DNA from: Eledone cirrhosa
Taxonomy: Eukaryota
DNA: 64,000 bases
Reading direction: 5' to 3'
Assembly (NCBI GenBank): GCA_964016885.1
Contig: OZ024741.1
Coordinates: forward strand, 347,882,001 to 347,946,000
A program made the translations under genes and the position numbers. The notes under the pieces were generated by a model. It ran no database searches. It was given only the letters and a program-made list of their open reading frames with translations, and had not been told where the DNA came from. Shown here piece by piece: positions 7,015 to 49,154 of this stretch. Numbering within the stretch: position 1 is the first letter of the stretch; each line of letters starts with the position of its first letter.

Positions 7015-7370
7015 TATCAATTCAAAATATTAACAAAATAGATATTCTTCTGATCAATTATATTTTGTTTAAGATAGTAGATGGTTAAGATTCAGTCATG
7101 GTAGTGACTACCATGATTGAATCTTAACCATCTACTATGTCAGGGTATGTCATGTATCATTTTATTTTATCTGATGAGGACGTACTTTTAAACCTAACTC
7201 AGTACCTTTGAAATATGTATAATAAAATATAATTGATCACAAGAATATCTATTTTGTTAATATTTTGAATTAATATTAAAAACTCTGGAAAACCTCGCTG
7301 TTGAGTGCTTCCAATCTATTGTAAAACTTATTATTTGATGTATTCATTGAACCTTGTTTAACTTTTAAAT
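7015..7370 (+). mobile_element. TA-flanked fold-back mini-element (PLE pLTR-like)
   Basis: Outer arms at ~7018-7068 and 7224-7273, plus an inner near-perfect palindrome at ~7075-7138. A hammerhead lies on the right side and (TA)n flanks both ends. Confidence 0.8.
7163..7229 (+). ncRNA. minimal type I hammerhead ribozyme
   Basis: tattttat-CTGATGA-ggacgtac...gtaccttt-GAAA-tatgta-TA-ataaaata. Stem I is 8 bp and stem III is short and quasi-palindromic. Predicted cut after 7221. Confidence 0.75.
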
Positions 7371-7415
7371 ATATATATATATACATACATACATATATAT
7401 ATATACATATATATA

Positions 7416-7458
<43 letters not shown>

Positions 7459-7467
7459 AAGTGTGTC

Positions 7468-7538
7468 CTCATCAGTGGCCTTCCAACCGTCGTAGGCATT
7501 TCGTCGCATTAAAGGCCATATACCTCAGGTTGGTGCGA
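7468..7538 (-). ncRNA. non-circularly permuted hammerhead candidate, copy 1 (core intact)
   Basis: Minus strand reads tcgca-ccaacc-TGA-ggta-TA-tggcctt-taa-tgcga-c-GAAA-tgcc-TACGAC-ggttgg-aaggcca-CTGATGA-g. Confidence 0.75.
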
Positions 7539-8367
7539 GCAACGGCTAAAAAAAGTCGTTGGGACACGTAAATAAGGGGGACGCTAGGGTAAACAAACAA
7601 AATGGTTTAAGCAACAGAAAGTGATGAAGAAGAAACAAGTCACAGATTTCTATGAATATAAATTCGGTGGAATCGTGAACGAGAGAATAAAGACCATAAA
7701 ACCTGGTTGAAATGTGAGCAAGGAAGGAATTTCGCACAGGTCTAACGGGAGGAAGAAGGGGCCTGGTCTGCGAATTCGGTAAACATAAGTTCTGTGAAGT
7801 CGCAGACGAGAGAGAGAGTAACAAAATTCATACCGGCTTGGCCACGTGCCCGCGAGAAAAGGATTATCATATTTACACATATATTTTTTCCTCCGCTGCC
7901 ACCAGTCTGTTTCGTTCTTTGTGTGTTTACCCTTTCTAGCAGTCTCTCTCTCTCTCTGTTAGCCTCTTCCTCACCTTTCACTCACTCACTCTCTGTCACT
8001 ACCTCTCCTCCTCCCCTTTCTTCCCGTTTGACCTGTCCGTAATCCTTTTCTCGAGGGCACGTGGCCAAGCCGGTATGAATTTTTTTCCTCTCTCTCTCGT
8101 CTGCGACTTCACAGAACATATGTTTACCGAATTCGGAGACCAGACCCCTTCTTCCTCCCGTTAGACCTGTGCGAAATTCCTTCCTTTCTCACATTTCAAC
8201 CAGGTTTGATTGTCTTTATTCTCTCGTTCACGATTCCACCGAATTTATATTCATAGAAATCTGGGACTTGTTTCTTCTTCATCACTTTCAGTTGCTTACA
8301 CCATGTTGTTTGTTTACCGTAGCGTCCCCCTTATTTACGTGTCCCAACGACTTTTTTTAGCCGTTGC

Positions 8368-8438
8368 TCGCACCAACCTGAGGTATATGGCCTTTAATGC
8401 GACGCAATGCCTACGACGGTTGGAAGGCCACTGATGAG
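8368..8438 (+). ncRNA. non-circularly permuted hammerhead candidate, copy 2 (GAAA changed to GCAA)
   Basis: Same as copy 1 but with GCAA at 8404-8407, so probably impaired. Confidence 0.65.
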
Positions 8439-8447
8439 GACAAACTT

Positions 8448-8495
<48 letters not shown>

Positions 8496-8717
8496 CTCCC
8501 GTTTGGCTTGTGTGGGTCTCTTCTTGCTCACATCTCACACACATCAACACGGTCTGTACCTCTCTCGCACATGAAATCCACCCAGCTTATGCTGACCGGA
8601 CAATCATGTTGCTTGTTTATTTTCCTATCTTCGGTTTGCTTTTGTCCTTCTATGTTGTTTACTTGTCCCACTCGCCTTACGCGAATTCTGGTGCCAATAA
8701 CTTATTTTAGTTATTGC

Positions 8718-8788
8718 TCGCACCAACCTGAGGTATCTGATTTTTAATGCGATGAAATACCAATGATGGTTGGAAAATCACTGACGAA
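8718..8788 (+). ncRNA. non-circularly permuted hammerhead candidate, copy 3
   Basis: tcgca-ccaacc-TGA-ggta-TC-tgatttt-taa-tgcga-t-GAAA-tacc-AATGAT-ggttgg-aaaatca-CTGACGA-a. Predicted cut after C8737. Confidence 0.75.
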
Positions 8789-9243
8789 GGACTATTTTTA
8801 TCATATGTAACCCATGTGCAAACCACGCAGTATTCTTCTTTCTTCTCATGTGTTTTTATATATATTTACCTCGGCTGCGTTTGTCTGTTTCTCTCTTACT
8901 GCTTCGCCGCTCTCTCTGTTTCTCTCACCTTGTTTCGCCCTCTGTCAGTTACACTTTCTCTCGACTGACCTCTTCCTCACACTTCCAATCACTCACTATC
9001 TGTTTCTGCCCTTCTCCCTTCCTCCCGTTTGGCTTGTGTGGGTCTCTTCTTCCTCACCTCTCACACAACTCAACACGGTCTGTACCCCTCTCGCTCATGA
9101 AATCCATCCAGATTATGCTGACCGGACAATCATGTTGCTTGTTTATTTTCCTATCTTCGGTTTGCTTTTATCCTTCTATGTTGTTTACTTGTCCCCCTCG
9201 CCTTACGCGAATTCTAGTCCCAATAACTGTTTTTATTTATTGC

Positions 9244-9314
9244 TCGCACCAACCTGAGGTATCTGATTTTTAATGCGATGAAATACCAATGATGGTTGGA
9301 AAATCACTGACGAA
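9244..9314 (+). ncRNA. non-circularly permuted hammerhead candidate, copy 4
   Basis: Motif identical to copy 3. Predicted cut after C9263. Confidence 0.75.
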
Positions 9315-9373
9315 AGACTATTTTTATCATATGTAACCCATGTGCAAACCACGCAGTATTCTTCTTTCTTCTC

Positions 9374-9441
<68 letters not shown>

Positions 9442-9627
9442 GGAGGGAAGAGAGCGAGAGAGAGGGAGTGAGAGAGAGAAATAGGGAGAGAGAGTTACAC
9501 TAACTACAAGTGCATACATCAAACCACATGTAAGGCAGAAACTAGTCAAACGTATAATATATATGGAACGAACCGCTAGAGCATGTGTGTTGACCACGCA
9601 TACATATATACATATATACACAGATAT

Positions 9628-13700: not shown

Positions 13701-14867
13701 CGAGGTGTGTTAAAATAGCAACAGGATTTATTGTGTTTATTGTGTGCTATGAGAGGAATAAGGATTTAGCGGTTTGTGTTGCATTGTGAGATAATACTCG
13801 AAAAGTGTATAATTGCCAACTCAGCTATCTGCAACCATTGTATGTTTTTTTTACCTGCTTTTGCTAACATCTTTTCATTATTAGGCTGTCGAGTGTTGGG
13901 TACAGAGTAACGAACCAACCTAAGGTTTCTGATCCTGTTGGGGAAAATATTGTCAGAAGCACTGGTCATAATGCAGGAAGTATACGGGAATAAAACGATG
14001 TCGCATTCAAGGGTTTTCGGGTGGCACAAAAGGTTCAAAGATGAATTCAAAAAAGTGGAAGACGTTTCCAGGAGCGGAAGGTCTTAAAAGAACCGAACTG
14101 AGGCCAGCGTTGAGCCCATAAGGCAGCTGGTGCGTGGTCATCTTCGGCTACCTGTTAAACTGATCGCAAGTGAGCTTGGCTTGAAACCGGACATCGTTTG
14201 TAAGATTATCACAGAAGATTTGACTATGCGAAAGTTTAGAATATACTAGAGTGTCTTAAACCGACGCTTGACGGCAAAATTTATGAATCTTTAGACAAAA
14301 CCCTAGAGTATTCGGTGTGGAGTCGCTGAGGCCGACAAAATCAAAACACTCGATGTCAAATGTCAAACTCATGTTGATCACGTTCTTCGATGTTATGGGC
14401 ATCACACACATAGCTTTTAGCTATAAGGACAGACGATGGACCAGCTTGTTTTATATAGAAATCCTGTACCGTTTATCTCCTTCTGATAAAACGGGAGAGT
14501 TGAGGAAGGACAACTGGTGGCTGCATCACCACGACATTACACCGTGTGACAACGCCCTCAGCATTTGGCTGTTCCTGGATGGTAAGAATATCGCAGTGCT
14601 AGAGCAGCCACCCTACTTACCCGACGTGGATCTATTTATCTTTTTTCCTTTCCTTAAGCTTAAGATGATCATTAAAGGGGCCCGTTTTCCTTCCATGAAC
14701 GCCCAAAAATGGACTGTGTCGACGGTGCTGCGGTGAATCCAGGAAGAAGGAAGGGAAAGTGCGTTAAACTGGAGGGGAATAATTTGGAAGGACAAAAGTT
14801 GTAGTTAGAAGTTTGTTTTTAATATATTTTTGCAACCCCAGTCCTGTTTATTTTCTGACACACCTCA
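13701..14867 (+). mobile_element. mariner (Tc1/mariner) DNA transposon, decayed
   Basis: Imperfect TIRs TA|CGAGGTGTGTTAAAATAGCAACAGGATT ... AGTCCTGTTTATTTTCTGACACACCTCA. ORF 14317..14736 has KLMLITFFD..GI, WWLHHHDITP (HDNAP-like) and PPYLPDVD (YSPDL-like). The N-terminal part is disrupted. Confidence 0.9.
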
Positions 14868-31326: not shown

Positions 31327-32480
31327 TTTTTGTCTTCTCTGCGCATGCGTTTGCGTGTGTGTATAGTGTTTGATATGTGTTCGCGTTTGGGTGACTGTGT
31401 TTTGGTTATTGTAGTCTATCTTAGTTTACTAGTGTGTGTTTATGTGTCTGTTTTTATTGTGCTTGTGTATATATTTATTCATTTATTTACATTTCTCCTA
31501 GGTCAGTATTGTTTGTTTGGGTGTTGTTGTTATTCCATTCATTTTTTTCTGTTTAGCTTTGGCCTTCTAAGTTCTATTTCACTGGCCTCTCTGATTTTCT
31601 GGGTCATTTCTATGTTTAGATATTTATTTTAATTTCTATGTTGTCTATGTTACCGGCATGTTGTTGTCTGGCGTGTTCGTATATTACTGAACCGTTTTTT
31701 CGTCCTTTTAGTTTCCCCCAGTGTTGATCTATCCTTTCACCTATGTTACGAGCTGTCCCGCCTATGTATGTTGTTGTCATGTTTCTGCAAGTACACTCTG
31801 TACATCTTATGCTATAGACTACGTTTCTAGTTTTACAGTTTATCCGGGGCTTTACTTTGTATATAATACATTTCCTATTAGTACAGTGGGTTTTCTTAAA
31901 AGGGTATGTTTTGCTGATCAGGGATTTTATGGTGGTTCCTGTCTTTTCTACCACCTTAATCTTTAAGTAGGTCTTTGTCAGGTCCTTTCTACACTGGTTA
32001 GCTAATTTCCCTCCAGGGGTAGCGTCCAGGAACATGACACTCTGGTATCTCTGGTTGTCGCACCATAAGATGGCTTTCCCTATCTTATGTTTAGTCCTAT
32101 CTAAGCTATTCCATGATTTGCTCCTGTATAATGGGCAAATTCCTTTCATGTCCAGTTCTATGAGGGTCTTATACTTCTCCGTGGCTCCTTCGTATACTCT
32201 GATTCTGTCACATGGGTTGTAGCCAGAGAACTTCATGCGGTTGATGATGTGTTATATGTGTCTTTCCATTTCTGTTGGGTCGCACATGCGGGACACGTTC
32301 TTCATCACTCGTACCAAGTCTGCGGTCAGAATTTAAATTTAGCACTGCTGGACATTGCTGAGTTTTTGAGTATCAGGTATTTGGAGGCCATAGGTTTCGC
32401 GTAGTGTGAGTGGAGAATTTGGCACTCTCGTCTATAGTGTTAATCCAGAGTTTCGTGTCTAATACAGGTAGTCTGTGGTT
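31015..32480 (-). mobile_element. 5'-truncated Penelope-like element B (RT C-terminus plus GIY-YIG), decayed
   Basis: ORF 31616..32236 reads SGY...PLYRSKSW...TPGGKLA...CKTRNVVYSIRCTEC...YIGGTARNIGERIDQH...HARQQH. HYAKPMASKYL occurs upstream. A degenerate HHR (acca-CTGACGA-tgctgca..tgcaac-GAAA) lies at 31198-31240 in the 3' region. Confidence 0.85.
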
Positions 32481-33487: not shown

Positions 33488-36231
33488 CACACACATACAC
33501 ATATACAAGCACACACGCATACATACACATACATACATACATACAAATAAGTACACATAAACGCATAGCACAAACACGCACTCGTTCGCACTCATATATG
33601 TGTCTATAATATAATGGTAGTGGGACAAATTTTAAATTTTAAATTTTAAATTTTAAACTGGGCCTGATAGAGGATTAAAATAATTAATATCACTACTAAG
33701 TTATTAATATTATCATCAAGTAATTAATTACTATTTATTATTTACTATTTATCATTCACTATTCGTTACCTATCTTTTATCTTTTATCTATTCATTACCT
33801 AATCACTCACTCATAAATAAATAAATAAAATAATGAGTTAACTAACAAACAAACAGACAAACAGATAAACAAATAAACCTGTAAATAAGTAAATAAATAA
33901 ATAAATAAATAAATAAATAGATAAATAAATAAATAAGTAAATAAACAACTAAATAAATAAATAAATAAATTTAAAAAAATAAAAAAAAAAATAAAAAAAT
34001 TAAATATACAGATAAATAGATAAATAAATCACGAACGTGTGCGTGCAGCAGTTCATAACTGCACGTATGCAAACATGAGCAGGTATATACGTGAATTTGT
34101 GAGTGCGGCCACAGAACTTTACTCAGAGGCATACAACACGATATATAAGACCTGGAAGGGAGGAAAGAATGTAATAATGAGAGATAGAGGGGAGGAAAGA
34201 GGGTAATAATGAGAGATGGAGGGACGGAATTGGGATGGGGGACGGGGGTGGGGTGGTGATATGGGGGGCGGGATCAGTCGGGGGGCCGGGGGGTCAGTAG
34301 TTTTTGTAATTTGCATAGTTCTTGTGCATGCAATTAGGGGAGTGTTCCGAGATCTTGTTGAGGAGAGGGCCTTTGACGAATAGAATCTCATAGCTCTCGG
34401 AGATACAGAGGTCACAGCAATTATGGCCTCCCGTGTAGGATCGCGCTCTCTGGAGTAGTCTCCATTGAGTCTTGAAGGGGATGGAGTTCCTTTTAAGGTG
34501 CCAGATGTGGGCGGCGAGTGTAGTTTGGTTAGATATGTCCTGGCGCCGGAACGAATGTGTGTGGGCGTACCAGCGAGTCTTAAAACTATTAGAAGTCATC
34601 CCGATGTACGAGTTTCTTTTTTCATCGGGGCCTGAGAGTACATCGCATATATAGACGAGATCTGTTTTTAGACAGTTGTTGTTGAGAGGGCAGGTCGTCT
34701 TATCAGGGCAATTGCTGTTGCTATCGGTTGCTGGATGGGCTTCGGAAAAAGTAGACTTATTTAGCTTCTTGATGTTATTGTTGGCTAATTTCCTAGCTAG
34801 ATTAGGTGTGGTAGAGTAAGAGAGTCTAATGGTATTCTTATTAAGGATAGTATAGTACCTATGTTGGGTGGGGAAGTGTTTTTGTAAGAGAGTGAAGAAA
34901 ATTTTAGCTACAGGTGTTGAAACTTCGCGGTTGAAGGGGGGGGGGGGGGTGTACCAGCTAATGTGCCTTCGCCTATTCTTCCTGGGTGGGCGTGGGGCTA
35001 TACTAAGGTAGGTGATCTTATCTCTAAAGCCGCTGCGGGCCAGGGCCTCGTTGTAATAGGGGGCTGCTGCTCTAAAGATATCTTAATTGGCGGCGAGGCT
35101 AGATATCCTAAAGGAGACACTTTTTACTAGGTTGTCTAATATATTTTTGGGGTGGTTAGAATTAACGTCTATATATCTAAGAGATTCATTAGGTTTGTGG
35201 TACGGGTAGTAAACGGAAGTTTCTAAGTCGAGGGTAACGTCTAGGAAATTAGCTTTAGTTAGTTCGAATCTAAGGTAATCCTAAGGCCTAAGTTTTTAAA
35301 GAAGGTGTAAAGGTTTTTCCTGAACCCATCCGTGGTCCTGGGGTTGATTTTGTGGAGGGCAAAGAGGCCGTCATCTCGGTGGAGACCGCCGGAGAGGCCT
35401 GTGAAGAGGGTCTTCAACCTGTGGAGGATGAACAGACCCACAAGGTCACTAATATCAGCTGAGTCGCTAGCACCCATGATAACGTCGAAGGGGGTCTCAG
35501 ATTTTTTGTTGATCCAGTGGGATCTGTCATGGTAAAGAAAAGTCTTACGTGCATGGAGGATCACATCCTGCTCGGCTTAGGTAATTGTGGTTAAGTTCCT
35601 GGCGAAGTTAATCGCGTCAATCAGCAGGCTCTCTGATATGGATGCGTAGTAATCCTCGATGTCTAGCTGCAGGAAGCGGGTGTTGCTTTTGTCGGGCAAG
35701 TCCCGGAACCATGTGATTGCCTCTGATGTCCTATTCAAGAGTGGGAGAGATGAGGCAGCACGTAGTCTAGGTAGAATCCTGTCCAGGATCTTCTTACTGA
35801 CTGATCCTATGTCAGACTTGGTCGGGTTAATCAGCCGGACCGACGGTTTATTGTCGAAGTTGTTCTTGTGGTCTGTTAGGGTGAAGTGTGGGGACTTTAC
35901 CCTCAGAGGTCCTGTCCGGTCTTCCAGTTTAAGGGAAGTGGCGATCTTCTTTCCGGCTATGTTTGTTTCAGTCAAAGTAGTGTCATCAACTTTTTTGTAC
36001 TTTGCTATCATGGCATTATCAGCAAGCTTGTTGTATGTGTCGGGAATAACCGCATAAGTGTTTTTAGTTTTGTCTGAAGGGACGTGGAGGTACGGGGAAC
36101 TTTTCATTTTCAGAAGTTTCTCCTTTAAGTCCGTTTGGAAAGGTATGTTGACTTTCCTGAATTTAATATTTTTTATCATTTGAAGAGGTCTTCTTCAAAT
36201 GGTTCAAGTAGGCTGTTGGTGGGTGGAGCCT

Positions 36232-47856: not shown

Positions 47857-49154
47857 TATTGGTAAACGGAATAGAAAATGCTGACAAATTGTTCACAGTG
47901 AAAAATAGTTTAATTAGGAATAAGTGATAATTAGTAATAGTATTGGTTAGTATTAAGTTTTGGTTTTAAGTTTTACCGCTTGCGCAGTTCTAATGCTTTT
48001 CAAAAATAATTTTGAAAGTAAATCAACCGAAACTAAAATCTCTTCCAAACATCTCCGCACACAACCCTCTCAACAATGAGCCTCCAGAACATCCCTGTGT
48101 TGAAAAAGGACCATAGAATGAACCAAATCCTACGAACACACGATATCATAAAGAGCAAAAGACAATCTAAGTCAATGAAAAACATCTTAACACATGCCAA
48201 AGTACTGCCAACCACAACAACGAAACCCACAGTAAGAAAATGCGATAGACCCAACTGTGGCATCTGCATCAACCTAATAGAGGGTTCGGAATTCTATTTC
48301 AAAGAAGGACAACGTTTTATAGTAAAACACAATTTCACATGCGCATCGGAAAATCTAATATATGTATTAACTTGCTCAGGTTGTCGAGAACAATACATAG
48401 GCCAGACCGAAAACAGCCTCCGCCAACGCATGACTGTCCATAGATCCCAAATTAAAATACGGGAATACAGGAAAATACCACTGAGTGAACACATTGATAC
48501 CTGTGCAACCCAAAATCATCCCAACTACAGAATATTTCCCCTCTACAAATGTAAAGATAAGGCCACCCACACCCAGCGCATCAGCAAGGAATCTTACTTT
48601 ATTAACAAATACGGACCCCGTCTAAACACTTCTCCCTAATACGAACCGACATCATACACACGTCAACATACATACCTACATCAGCATACATATCTAACCA
48701 CATATAAACAGAATGACATACGTAAACACACATCTTGTATGGTGCAACACAAATATACACACATTTGCATACCTTTTGATGTCTATAGATATAAACATGC
48801 CGACACACACACATACATAAACGCACACATGCATTGCACACTGATGGGCACATACATATTTGTGCACAGGTATTCCAATACGGCAAGGCCTAATGAATCT
48901 GGACACACTCACACATACCTTGGTATTATCATTTCACACCTTTATATTAAGGTTTTTTATATATATCATTTCACACCTTTTATTATTAAGGTTTTTGATG
49001 TTCTATTGAGAGAATCGATTTTACTGAAAATATCGAATAATGTACACCATTTTAACAGAAATATATACTAATCCACCCACACACACACATTCTCACACAC
49101 ACACACACACATATATATATACACACACATACACACGCGCATTAACATACAAAG

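Follow-up and report, generated by a model that had tools for sequence, protein, structure and literature searches.

Results

The ribozyme and its k-turn sequence

Read from its letters, the 64,000-nucleotide stretch of Eledone cirrhosa DNA analysed here (the window) holds at positions 8723-8773 a kink-turn (k-turn) sequence, which lies inside the extension of stem III of a type-SGC, i.e. non-circularly permuted, hammerhead. From 5' to 3', a cleavage block (stem III strand, U16.1, C17 and stem I strand) is followed by a GAAA block and a CUGANGA block. Hammerhead positions are numbered throughout in the established way, and the parts of the ribozyme are as follows.

8691..8722, forward strand: 5' extension, with a helix IIa strand (8691-8694), a hairpin (8695-8716) and a helix IIb strand (8718-8722)
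8723..8731, forward strand: non-bulged strand of the k-turn, with the 5' strand of the NC helix (8723-8728), 3n (U8729), G2n (8730) and A1n (8731); assigned from sequence, conservation and covariation
8732..8737, forward strand: block S, the stem III strand (8732-8736, at the same time C helix of the k-turn) ending in U16.1, and C17 (8737)
8738..8744, forward strand: 5' strand of stem I, which pairs with 8774-8780 and covaries
8745..8753, forward strand: 3-nt linker (8745-8747), helix IIb strand (8748-8752) and nucleotide 11.1 (8753)
8754..8761, forward strand: block G, core GAAA (8754-8757) followed by the stem III strand
8762..8773, forward strand: bulged strand of the k-turn, with bulge L1-L3 (8762-8764), G1b (8765) and A2b (8766)
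8767..8773, forward strand: rest of the bulged strand, 3b (U8767) and the 3' strand of the NC helix (8768-8773)
8774..8788, forward strand: block C, the 3' strand of stem I (8774-8780), core CUGACGA (8781-8787) and nucleotide 10.1 (8788)

K-turn positions are named as in PMC8191799; published work is cited by accession, in most cases for the portion of its text that was available. The bulge reads AAU. Strand 8732-8736 pairs with 8757-8761, helix IIb strand 8748-8752 with 8718-8722, and helix IIa strand 8691-8694 with 8789-8792, the last with one mismatch in this copy. By the hammerhead numbering, cleavage is predicted after 8737 (C17). The 3' strand of the NC helix continues into stem I strand 8774-8780 with a linker of 0 nt, just as the preliminary description had it, and the order of the blocks equals the published type-SGC permutation. 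A circular permutation or a dimer of a type I hammerhead was considered as a source of this arrangement and rejected, being unable to yield the S-G-C order by the block logic of Eckert et al. (PMC10085705).

At its far end the NC helix joins helix IIb via 0-1 nt on one strand and stem I via 0 nt on the other. Stem I and helix IIb are connected by the 3-nt linker, so that arms I and II meet the NC helix in a three-way junction at their far ends. Of stem II proper there is a single pair, 10.1-11.1, which covaries (A-U, G-C, G-U, U-A) and is a C.A mismatch in 6 of the 20 copies of one set. Together with this one-pair stem II the 5' extension would form a four-way junction of presumed geometry.

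Copies within the window

Exact matches to the 13-nt 5' part of the motif are found at 8373, 8723 and 9249 on the forward strand and at 7533 on the reverse strand, while a fifth match at 13915 with 2 mismatches is within chance (shuffle mean 0.78). The three further copies and the repeat that holds two of the four are listed below.

7483..7533, reverse strand: fourth copy, UAC bulge, core intact; inside the inverted arm 7413-7866, which faces 8040-8493
8373..8423, forward strand: third copy, with a UAC bulge and C.U at 3b.3n; its core reads GCAA in place of GAAA (8404-8407)
9249..9299, forward strand: second copy of the k-turn stem, same subfamily as 8723
8493..9400, forward strand: tandem repeat units with a period of 526 nt, holding the 8723 and 9249 copies and bordered by TA microsatellites; the 3' end is approximate

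The preliminary description had reported the motif in all four copies, with a bulge of AAU or UAC, and this is what is found: AAU in the copies at 8723 and 9249, UAC in those at 8373 and 7533. The standard k-turn consensus that it had recognised (C helix, 3-nt bulge, tandem G.A/A.G, NC helix) is likewise present in all four, and the helices covary. The four copies are members of one repeat family, so that the presence of the motif in all of them is not independent evidence. Three of the four keep the S, G, C order with CUGANGA, GAAA and UH intact; the copy at 8373 is probably dead, judging from the GCAA in place of the core GAAA. A search of the window against Rfam gave no match at gathering score, and at E<=5 the region 7300-9500 gave chance-level matches only, including a weak box C/D snoRNA (E 2.3).

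Conservation in the main family

With a pattern that leaves the k-turn free, at least 9,202 genome copies of this repeat family (family A) were found against 0 in the control; a strict pattern gave at least 1,581 genome matches, again with a control of 0. As an unselected sample we took the first 100 of the 9,202 listed places, 97 of which are of equal length and 3 of which carry one extra base. Among the 97, G2n is kept in 96, A1n in 93, G1b in 92 and A2b in 97, and both GA steps are intact in 87. In the ribozyme core, GAAA is intact in 91 copies and U16.1 in all 97, and H17 is A or C in 97/97 and never G. The UAA linker is present in 96-97 of the 97 copies; the GA letters are no more invariant than this linker, and this set alone therefore shows no selection on them.

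Differences between subfamilies fall on the free k-turn positions 3b, 3n, L1 and L3 and on compensated stem I pairs. Hereby the 3b.3n combination is U.G in 25 copies, U.U in 23, C.U in 22, A.A in 13, A.G in 10, G.A in 3 and C.A in 1; a Watson-Crick pair at this position occurs in 0/97 copies, a count that rests on 7 types (chance 0.07). At -1b:-1n, C:G is found in 90 copies and G:C in 0, and L3 is U in 72. In the contigs of four runs no other letters were seen at the four GA positions, at small depth for organisms B and C.

Diverged families and covariation

A general descriptor returned 100 matches against 2 in the control; having required GA/GA, it is unable to show GA conservation. Among its first 30 loci, 7 pass both stem checks, and 5 of these 7 also pair the NC helix, which had not been required. 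Families B and C (106 matches) and D (10 matches) come instead from searches anchored on the core and stem I only, with no GA letters asked for and controls at 0. Here the k-turn spacing is kept in 27 of 30 B/C loci and 9 of 10 D loci. A1n, G1b and A2b are each present in 25 of the 27 B/C copies, some of the misses being 5'-truncated copies, and of the 9 spaced D loci all have A2b, 7 have G1b and 7 have A1n, two being shifted by one base. Position 2n is U in 20 of the 27 B/C copies and G in 4. In families C and D, -1b:-1n is U:A and 3b.3n is U.U; in family B, 3b.3n is mostly C.A.

The flanking helices were compared in an ungapped alignment across families, for which 20 copies were picked by hand: 5 from A, 1 intermediate, 10 from B and 4 from D; C and E were excluded for length. 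In this alignment 90.8% of the cells pair, compared to 32-49% in slid controls, and double-sided changes occur in 19 of 24 pairs, including 5/6 pairs of the NC helix and 4/5 of the C helix; stems I and III also covary across copies. A1n and A2b are invariant throughout, as are the core letters, though most of the latter were search anchors. A second set of 20 copies was picked solely on a changed 3' strand of the NC helix. The 5' strand pairs with it at 6/6 positions in 12 copies, six of which need a 1-nt bulge, and the remainder comprises four point mutants of the main family and four partial cases; GA/GA is kept in 17/20. One subfamily (L045, L057, L085, L336-L339, L343, L348) combines a fully changed NC helix with a 1-nt bulge and U-A at 10.1-11.1.

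Taken at the level of sequence, the flanking NC and C helices are real, and the two key adenines outlast their turnover. Since the diverged families change the flanking helices with compensation yet keep A1n, G1b and A2b, the k-turn probably forms; for family A we regard a folded k-turn as likely on these grounds. A lack of GA conservation across the family, which the preliminary description had named as a point against its reading, is seen in part: both GA steps are intact in 87/97 copies of family A, with 3b, 3n, L1 and L3 varying, but 2n is U in 20 of 27 B/C copies, and family E, described below, has the motif in 0/30.

Outside the genome, a metagenome scan with the family pattern gave 0 matches. 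A scan of viral contigs with the general pattern was rejected as chance: it yielded 82 matches in the 80 loci examined of 120, 4 of which pass stems I and III and 0 of which pair the NC helix as well.

A lineage without the k-turn

Family E (692 matches, control 0) has the SGC order and core of the other families, and a standard k-turn is present in 0 of the 30 loci examined. In eight of these the bulge is a plain one of 3 nt, the former G and A form Watson-Crick pairs, and a short link leads to stem I. Another 12 carry the bulge on the opposite strand and reach stem I through a single-stranded link, and the remaining 10 show other or larger loops, two of them unclear. A tree of 38 copies from which the hinge letters had been left out (140 columns, midpoint root only) places E as one clade (100/99) among U2n copies, with the plain-bulge forms branching first. 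The k-turn would thus probably be ancestral and have been lost stepwise, unless the root lies inside E.

Nucleotide 11.1 of family E can pair with an upstream strand (5/5 pairs in 23/30), and 10.1-11.1 is mismatched in 29/30. Loss of the k-turn appears to be accompanied by a rewired stem II and may be compensated elsewhere. As a separate observation, the apparent pairing of 11.1 with the upstream strand in place of the base that follows CUGANGA (L411-L440) would break the assumption of Eckert et al. that "block C cannot be interrupted". Given the U at 2n in 20 of 27 B/C copies and the 30 E loci without a standard k-turn, the sequences indicate that the k-turn is not a necessity of the SGC topology in every lineage.

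The mobile element

The non-coding units that carry the ribozyme, about 520-680 nt in length, are arranged in tandem or in pairs facing head to head and terminate in TA repeats. At L040 and L130 the repeat is joined directly head to head with a Penelope-like ORF element, and at L064/L066 and L138 nearly so; the repeat and the element have a similar T-run-CAT end before the TA repeat. The Penelope-like element has an 828-residue ORF with reverse transcriptase, linker Zn finger and C-terminal GIY-YIG, and is, by the criteria in PMC8557442 applied to its sequence, of the Neptune or Nematis type. Searched against Pfam, the full ORF matches RVT_1 at E 3e-4, below the cut-off, and two short ORF pieces are not recognised. 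Scattered Penelope remnants lie near B, C and D loci, with none near the 30 E loci. No homology of the repeat to the terminal repeat of the Penelope-like element was found, and 12 of 14 long-ORF loci are without the repeat. From the junctions, the repeat is likely mobilised by a Penelope-like element, for which the one described here is a candidate; given the latter two observations, mobilisation would be in trans.

Several further observations concern related elements. The autonomous Penelope-like element (minus-strand terminal repeat of L127; L128-L130, L132-L134, L136-L140) has a CUGANGA-stem II-GAAA core in its terminal repeat; this core has no obvious stem I partner past the usual cut position and may be an atypical hammerhead. 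Other repeats, with hammerhead cores in canonical order, occur at L131, L132, L136 and L138. The stem II letters of one such repeat equal helix IIa of the SGC family, a possible hint of origin by duplication of a type I ribozyme. The window itself holds broken Penelope-like reverse transcriptase and GIY-YIG frames of other families at 34297-36194 and 31619-32251 (both reverse strand) and 48037-48636 (forward strand). Finally, Craig et al. list Naiad "HHR_half_core" cases in which the second half of the core lies on either side at a longer distance (PMC8557442), and some of these could be unrecognised permuted hammerheads.

Copies truncated at the predicted cut site are not in excess (1/30, and 1/18 distinct copies listed, read by eye). 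5' truncations beside TA repeats instead cluster at the UAA linker, in 10 of the 18 distinct family A copies listed, one truncation filter being biased against long TA flanks; these truncations probably arise from microhomology with the target.

Folding rules for the k-turn

Protein-dependent k-turns have a Watson-Crick or G.U pair at 3b.3n, as in U4, or G:C at -1b:-1n, as in box C/D (PMC4382518, PMC5689011, PMC8191799); the latter keeps box C/D k-turns unfolded without protein (PMC5689011). Classified by the published 3b.3n rules, the 97 family A copies comprise 58 good folders, 23 middle ones (U.U, including the 8723 copy), 16 others and 0 poor ones. Together with the C:G at -1b:-1n, the flanking-pair rules thus suggest that family A favours folding in Mg2+ alone. 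By the same rules, the U:A at -1b:-1n of families C and D predicts a weak folder. The U at 2n is a known variant, that of Kt-23, which folds in ions in its own context, while G2nU abolishes ion folding of Kt-7 and U.G at 3b.3n rescues Kt-23 (PMC2790904). Family B copies with U2n have mostly C.A at 3b.3n, not the rescuing U.G.

The assignment as "C/D-type" made in the preliminary description stands for the letters of one subfamily only. CUGA and RUGAUG occur together in 19 of the 97 unselected family A copies, the full RUGAUGA in 0/97, and -1b:-1n is the C:G described above. A k-turn could also be drawn between the core CUGA and the letters that resemble box C; having a single flanking pair, it was dropped.

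Discussion

A probable structural hinge

We favour, with some reserve, a structural role for the k-turn of this type-SGC hammerhead: as a hinge, it would fold the lengthened stem III back, and the far end of that stem would thereby close the three-way junction in which it meets stem I and helix IIb. What speaks for it in the sequences is the block order, the helices and their covariation, the junction links and the retention of A1n, G1b and A2b; the kink, the cleavage and the mobilisation are our deductions from these. The RNA would adopt a kink of roughly 50 degrees, for which Mg2+ and the closed ring of helices, rather than a protein, should be enough. There is a precedent in that tertiary closure can fold k-turns that are impaired alone (PMC3651934). 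Arms I and II would be held together by a triangle that stem III, kink and NC helix complete, in place of the usual contact of loop I and loop II. Minimal Penelope hammerheads need a dimer (PMC4209133); here, the long stem III and its closure would let a single copy cut after H17 without one, and a Penelope-like reverse transcriptase would then copy the RNA into TA repeats. The k-turn would be the commonest and probably the ancestral hinge but a replaceable one, B having changed G2n to U and E having then lost the motif. Like most k-turns, the canonical versions would probably be bound by L7Ae-family proteins in vitro, though such a protein would not be required.

A crude rod model, in which closure needs about 58 degrees or less, favours a tight kink, which is weak evidence and is contradicted by the plain-bulge copies of family E (subfamily E1). 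When three copies were folded in a nested model, which leaves pseudoknots outside, the NC-plus-C helix was not part of the best fold for two window copies.

Alternative explanations

The preliminary description had raised the possibility that cleavage is tuned by a host protein. The k-turn would then be a binding site for an L7Ae-family protein (15.5K/Snu13 or a relative), which docks on it, folds the knotted hammerhead and switches it on, with C and D dependent on the protein, A partly freed and E having escaped by rewiring. Such a reading would account for the persistence of G1b, A2b and A1n in families with wholly changed helices and for the U at L3 in 72/97 family A copies, and it fits with the predicted poor folding in ions alone of C and D (U:A with U.U) and of B (U2n with C.A). 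L7Ae reads G1b and G2n (PMC3884654), and minimal Penelope hammerheads have been suggested to need other factors in vivo (PMC4209133). The base G2n, however, is U in 20/27 B/C copies, the box C and D letters are combined in only 19/97 copies, and the signature of protein-dependent k-turns, G:C at -1b:-1n or a Watson-Crick or G.U pair at 3b.3n (PMC4382518, PMC5689011), is absent from family A. Moreover, family E has spread without the motif, which makes obligatory control by a host protein unlikely. While L7Ae binding in vitro is likely by analogy, gating is not, and we consider a protein-tuned ribozyme improbable. If it were true, an animal retroelement would carry a naturally occurring hammerhead that is gated by a protein. 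A word search of the text of PMC4231745 finds L7Ae in the reference list only.

It is also conceivable, if scarcely more probable than protein control, that any break of the helix suffices at this place, the GA letters being inherited and loosely kept and the RNA forming a flexible bulge instead of a folded k-turn. The plain bulges (8/30), opposite-strand bulges (12/30) and larger loops (10/30) of family E, which amounts to 692 matches with an intact core pattern, are what one would then expect, as is the failure of the GA letters to exceed the background invariance in family A. In A, B, C and D, however, both helices have been completely replaced while A1n, G1b, A2b and the 3-nt length of the bulge persisted; family E is a single young clade inside the U2n copies (100/99), and in it the partner of 11.1 has moved upstream. 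Least probable of all, and to our mind very unlikely, is that the hammerhead is no longer catalytic and that its folded 3' end, including the k-turn, is kept for recognition by the Penelope reverse transcriptase or for RNA stability. The motif does lie 10-80 nt from the 3' end in 80/100 copies, and the absent truncation excess at the cut site, the one-pair stem II with its C.A mismatches in 6/20 copies of one set and the competing nested folds would all agree with a dead ribozyme. On the other hand, H17 is A or C in 97/97 copies and never G; the 20-copy alignment shows no change in the core letters, most of which had, however, served as search anchors, and type-SGC ribozymes cut in vitro (PMC10085705).

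Comparison with known systems

Type-SGC hammerheads were described by Eckert et al. in 2023 (PMC10085705): HRIMA-1 and its variants cleave in vitro and were found in none of the genomes of known organisms. With HRIMA-1 the Eledone ribozyme has in common the S-G-C order, the full core, stems I and III, a linker of about 3 nt between stem I and stem II and the zero-length link of stem III. In contrast to HRIMA-1, which comes from metatranscriptomes, it resides in a genome, as part of a retroelement with more than 9,000 copies; its stem II measures 1 bp and would form a four-way junction together with the 5' extension, an I-II interaction helix like theirs is missing, and a k-turn lengthens stem III, the word "kink" having 0 hits in the available text and supplement text of PMC10085705.

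As in standard k-turns of the Kt-7 class (Lilley rules), there is a C helix, a 3-nt bulge, G1b.A1n, A2b.G2n, a non-Watson-Crick 3b.3n and C:G at -1b:-1n; the differences are a G:C at 4b:4n as in box C/D, which carries a mild penalty, and the placement in a predicted self-cleaving ribozyme. Family B resembles Kt-23, which has A.U at 2b.2n (PMC2790904), in having U2n while keeping A1n, G1b and A2b, but its 3b.3n is mostly C.A, whereas the two bacterial Kt-23s described there have U.G or G.G; its A and U at 2b.2n could also form a plain Watson-Crick pair. The subfamily of the 8723 and 9249 copies shares CUGA, RUGAUG and U.U at 3b.3n with the k-turn of box C/D snoRNAs. It differs from the latter in the C:G instead of G:C at -1b:-1n and in the missing last A of box C (absent in 97/97); most subfamilies are without the letters, and no guide or snoRNA architecture is present here.

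The repeat is organised like the non-LTR retrozymes and Penelope pLTR hammerheads (PMC4209133; bioRxiv 10.64898/2026.07.22.740005), with non-coding tandem units, inverted 5' arms, TA targets and junctions with Penelope-like ORFs. Those hammerheads are of type I, mostly with a weak stem III and thought to need dimers, whereas the present one is of type SGC with a long stem III and would work singly. In the available text of bioRxiv 10.64898/2026.07.22.740005 and of PMC13725137, "kink" has 0 hits. A literature search, with most subscription journals outside its range, found no natural hammerhead with a k-turn, and no genome or genomic retroelement reported to carry a type-SGC hammerhead. Each of the two components, k-turn and type-SGC hammerhead, is known; their joining and the genomic placement of the SGC type, for which we found no paper, are apparently new. 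New here are also the conservation test blind to the k-turn, the Kt-23-like family and the lineage without the motif.

Implications

In some type-SGC hammerheads the far end of stem III has no linker at all, which Eckert et al. found difficult to reconcile with the crystal structure (PMC10085705), and this is the same geometric puzzle that the preliminary description had named as the topological problem of the permuted order. For the present lineage, the k-turn would be a concrete answer to how stem III can reach back without a linker. Descriptor searches for type I hammerheads would miss SGC elements, and counts of animal retrozymes may therefore be too low. The Eledone genome holds a natural series, from the canonical GA/GA over UA/GA and the plain bulge to the bulge on the opposite strand, with which the question of when a k-turn is required can readily be addressed.
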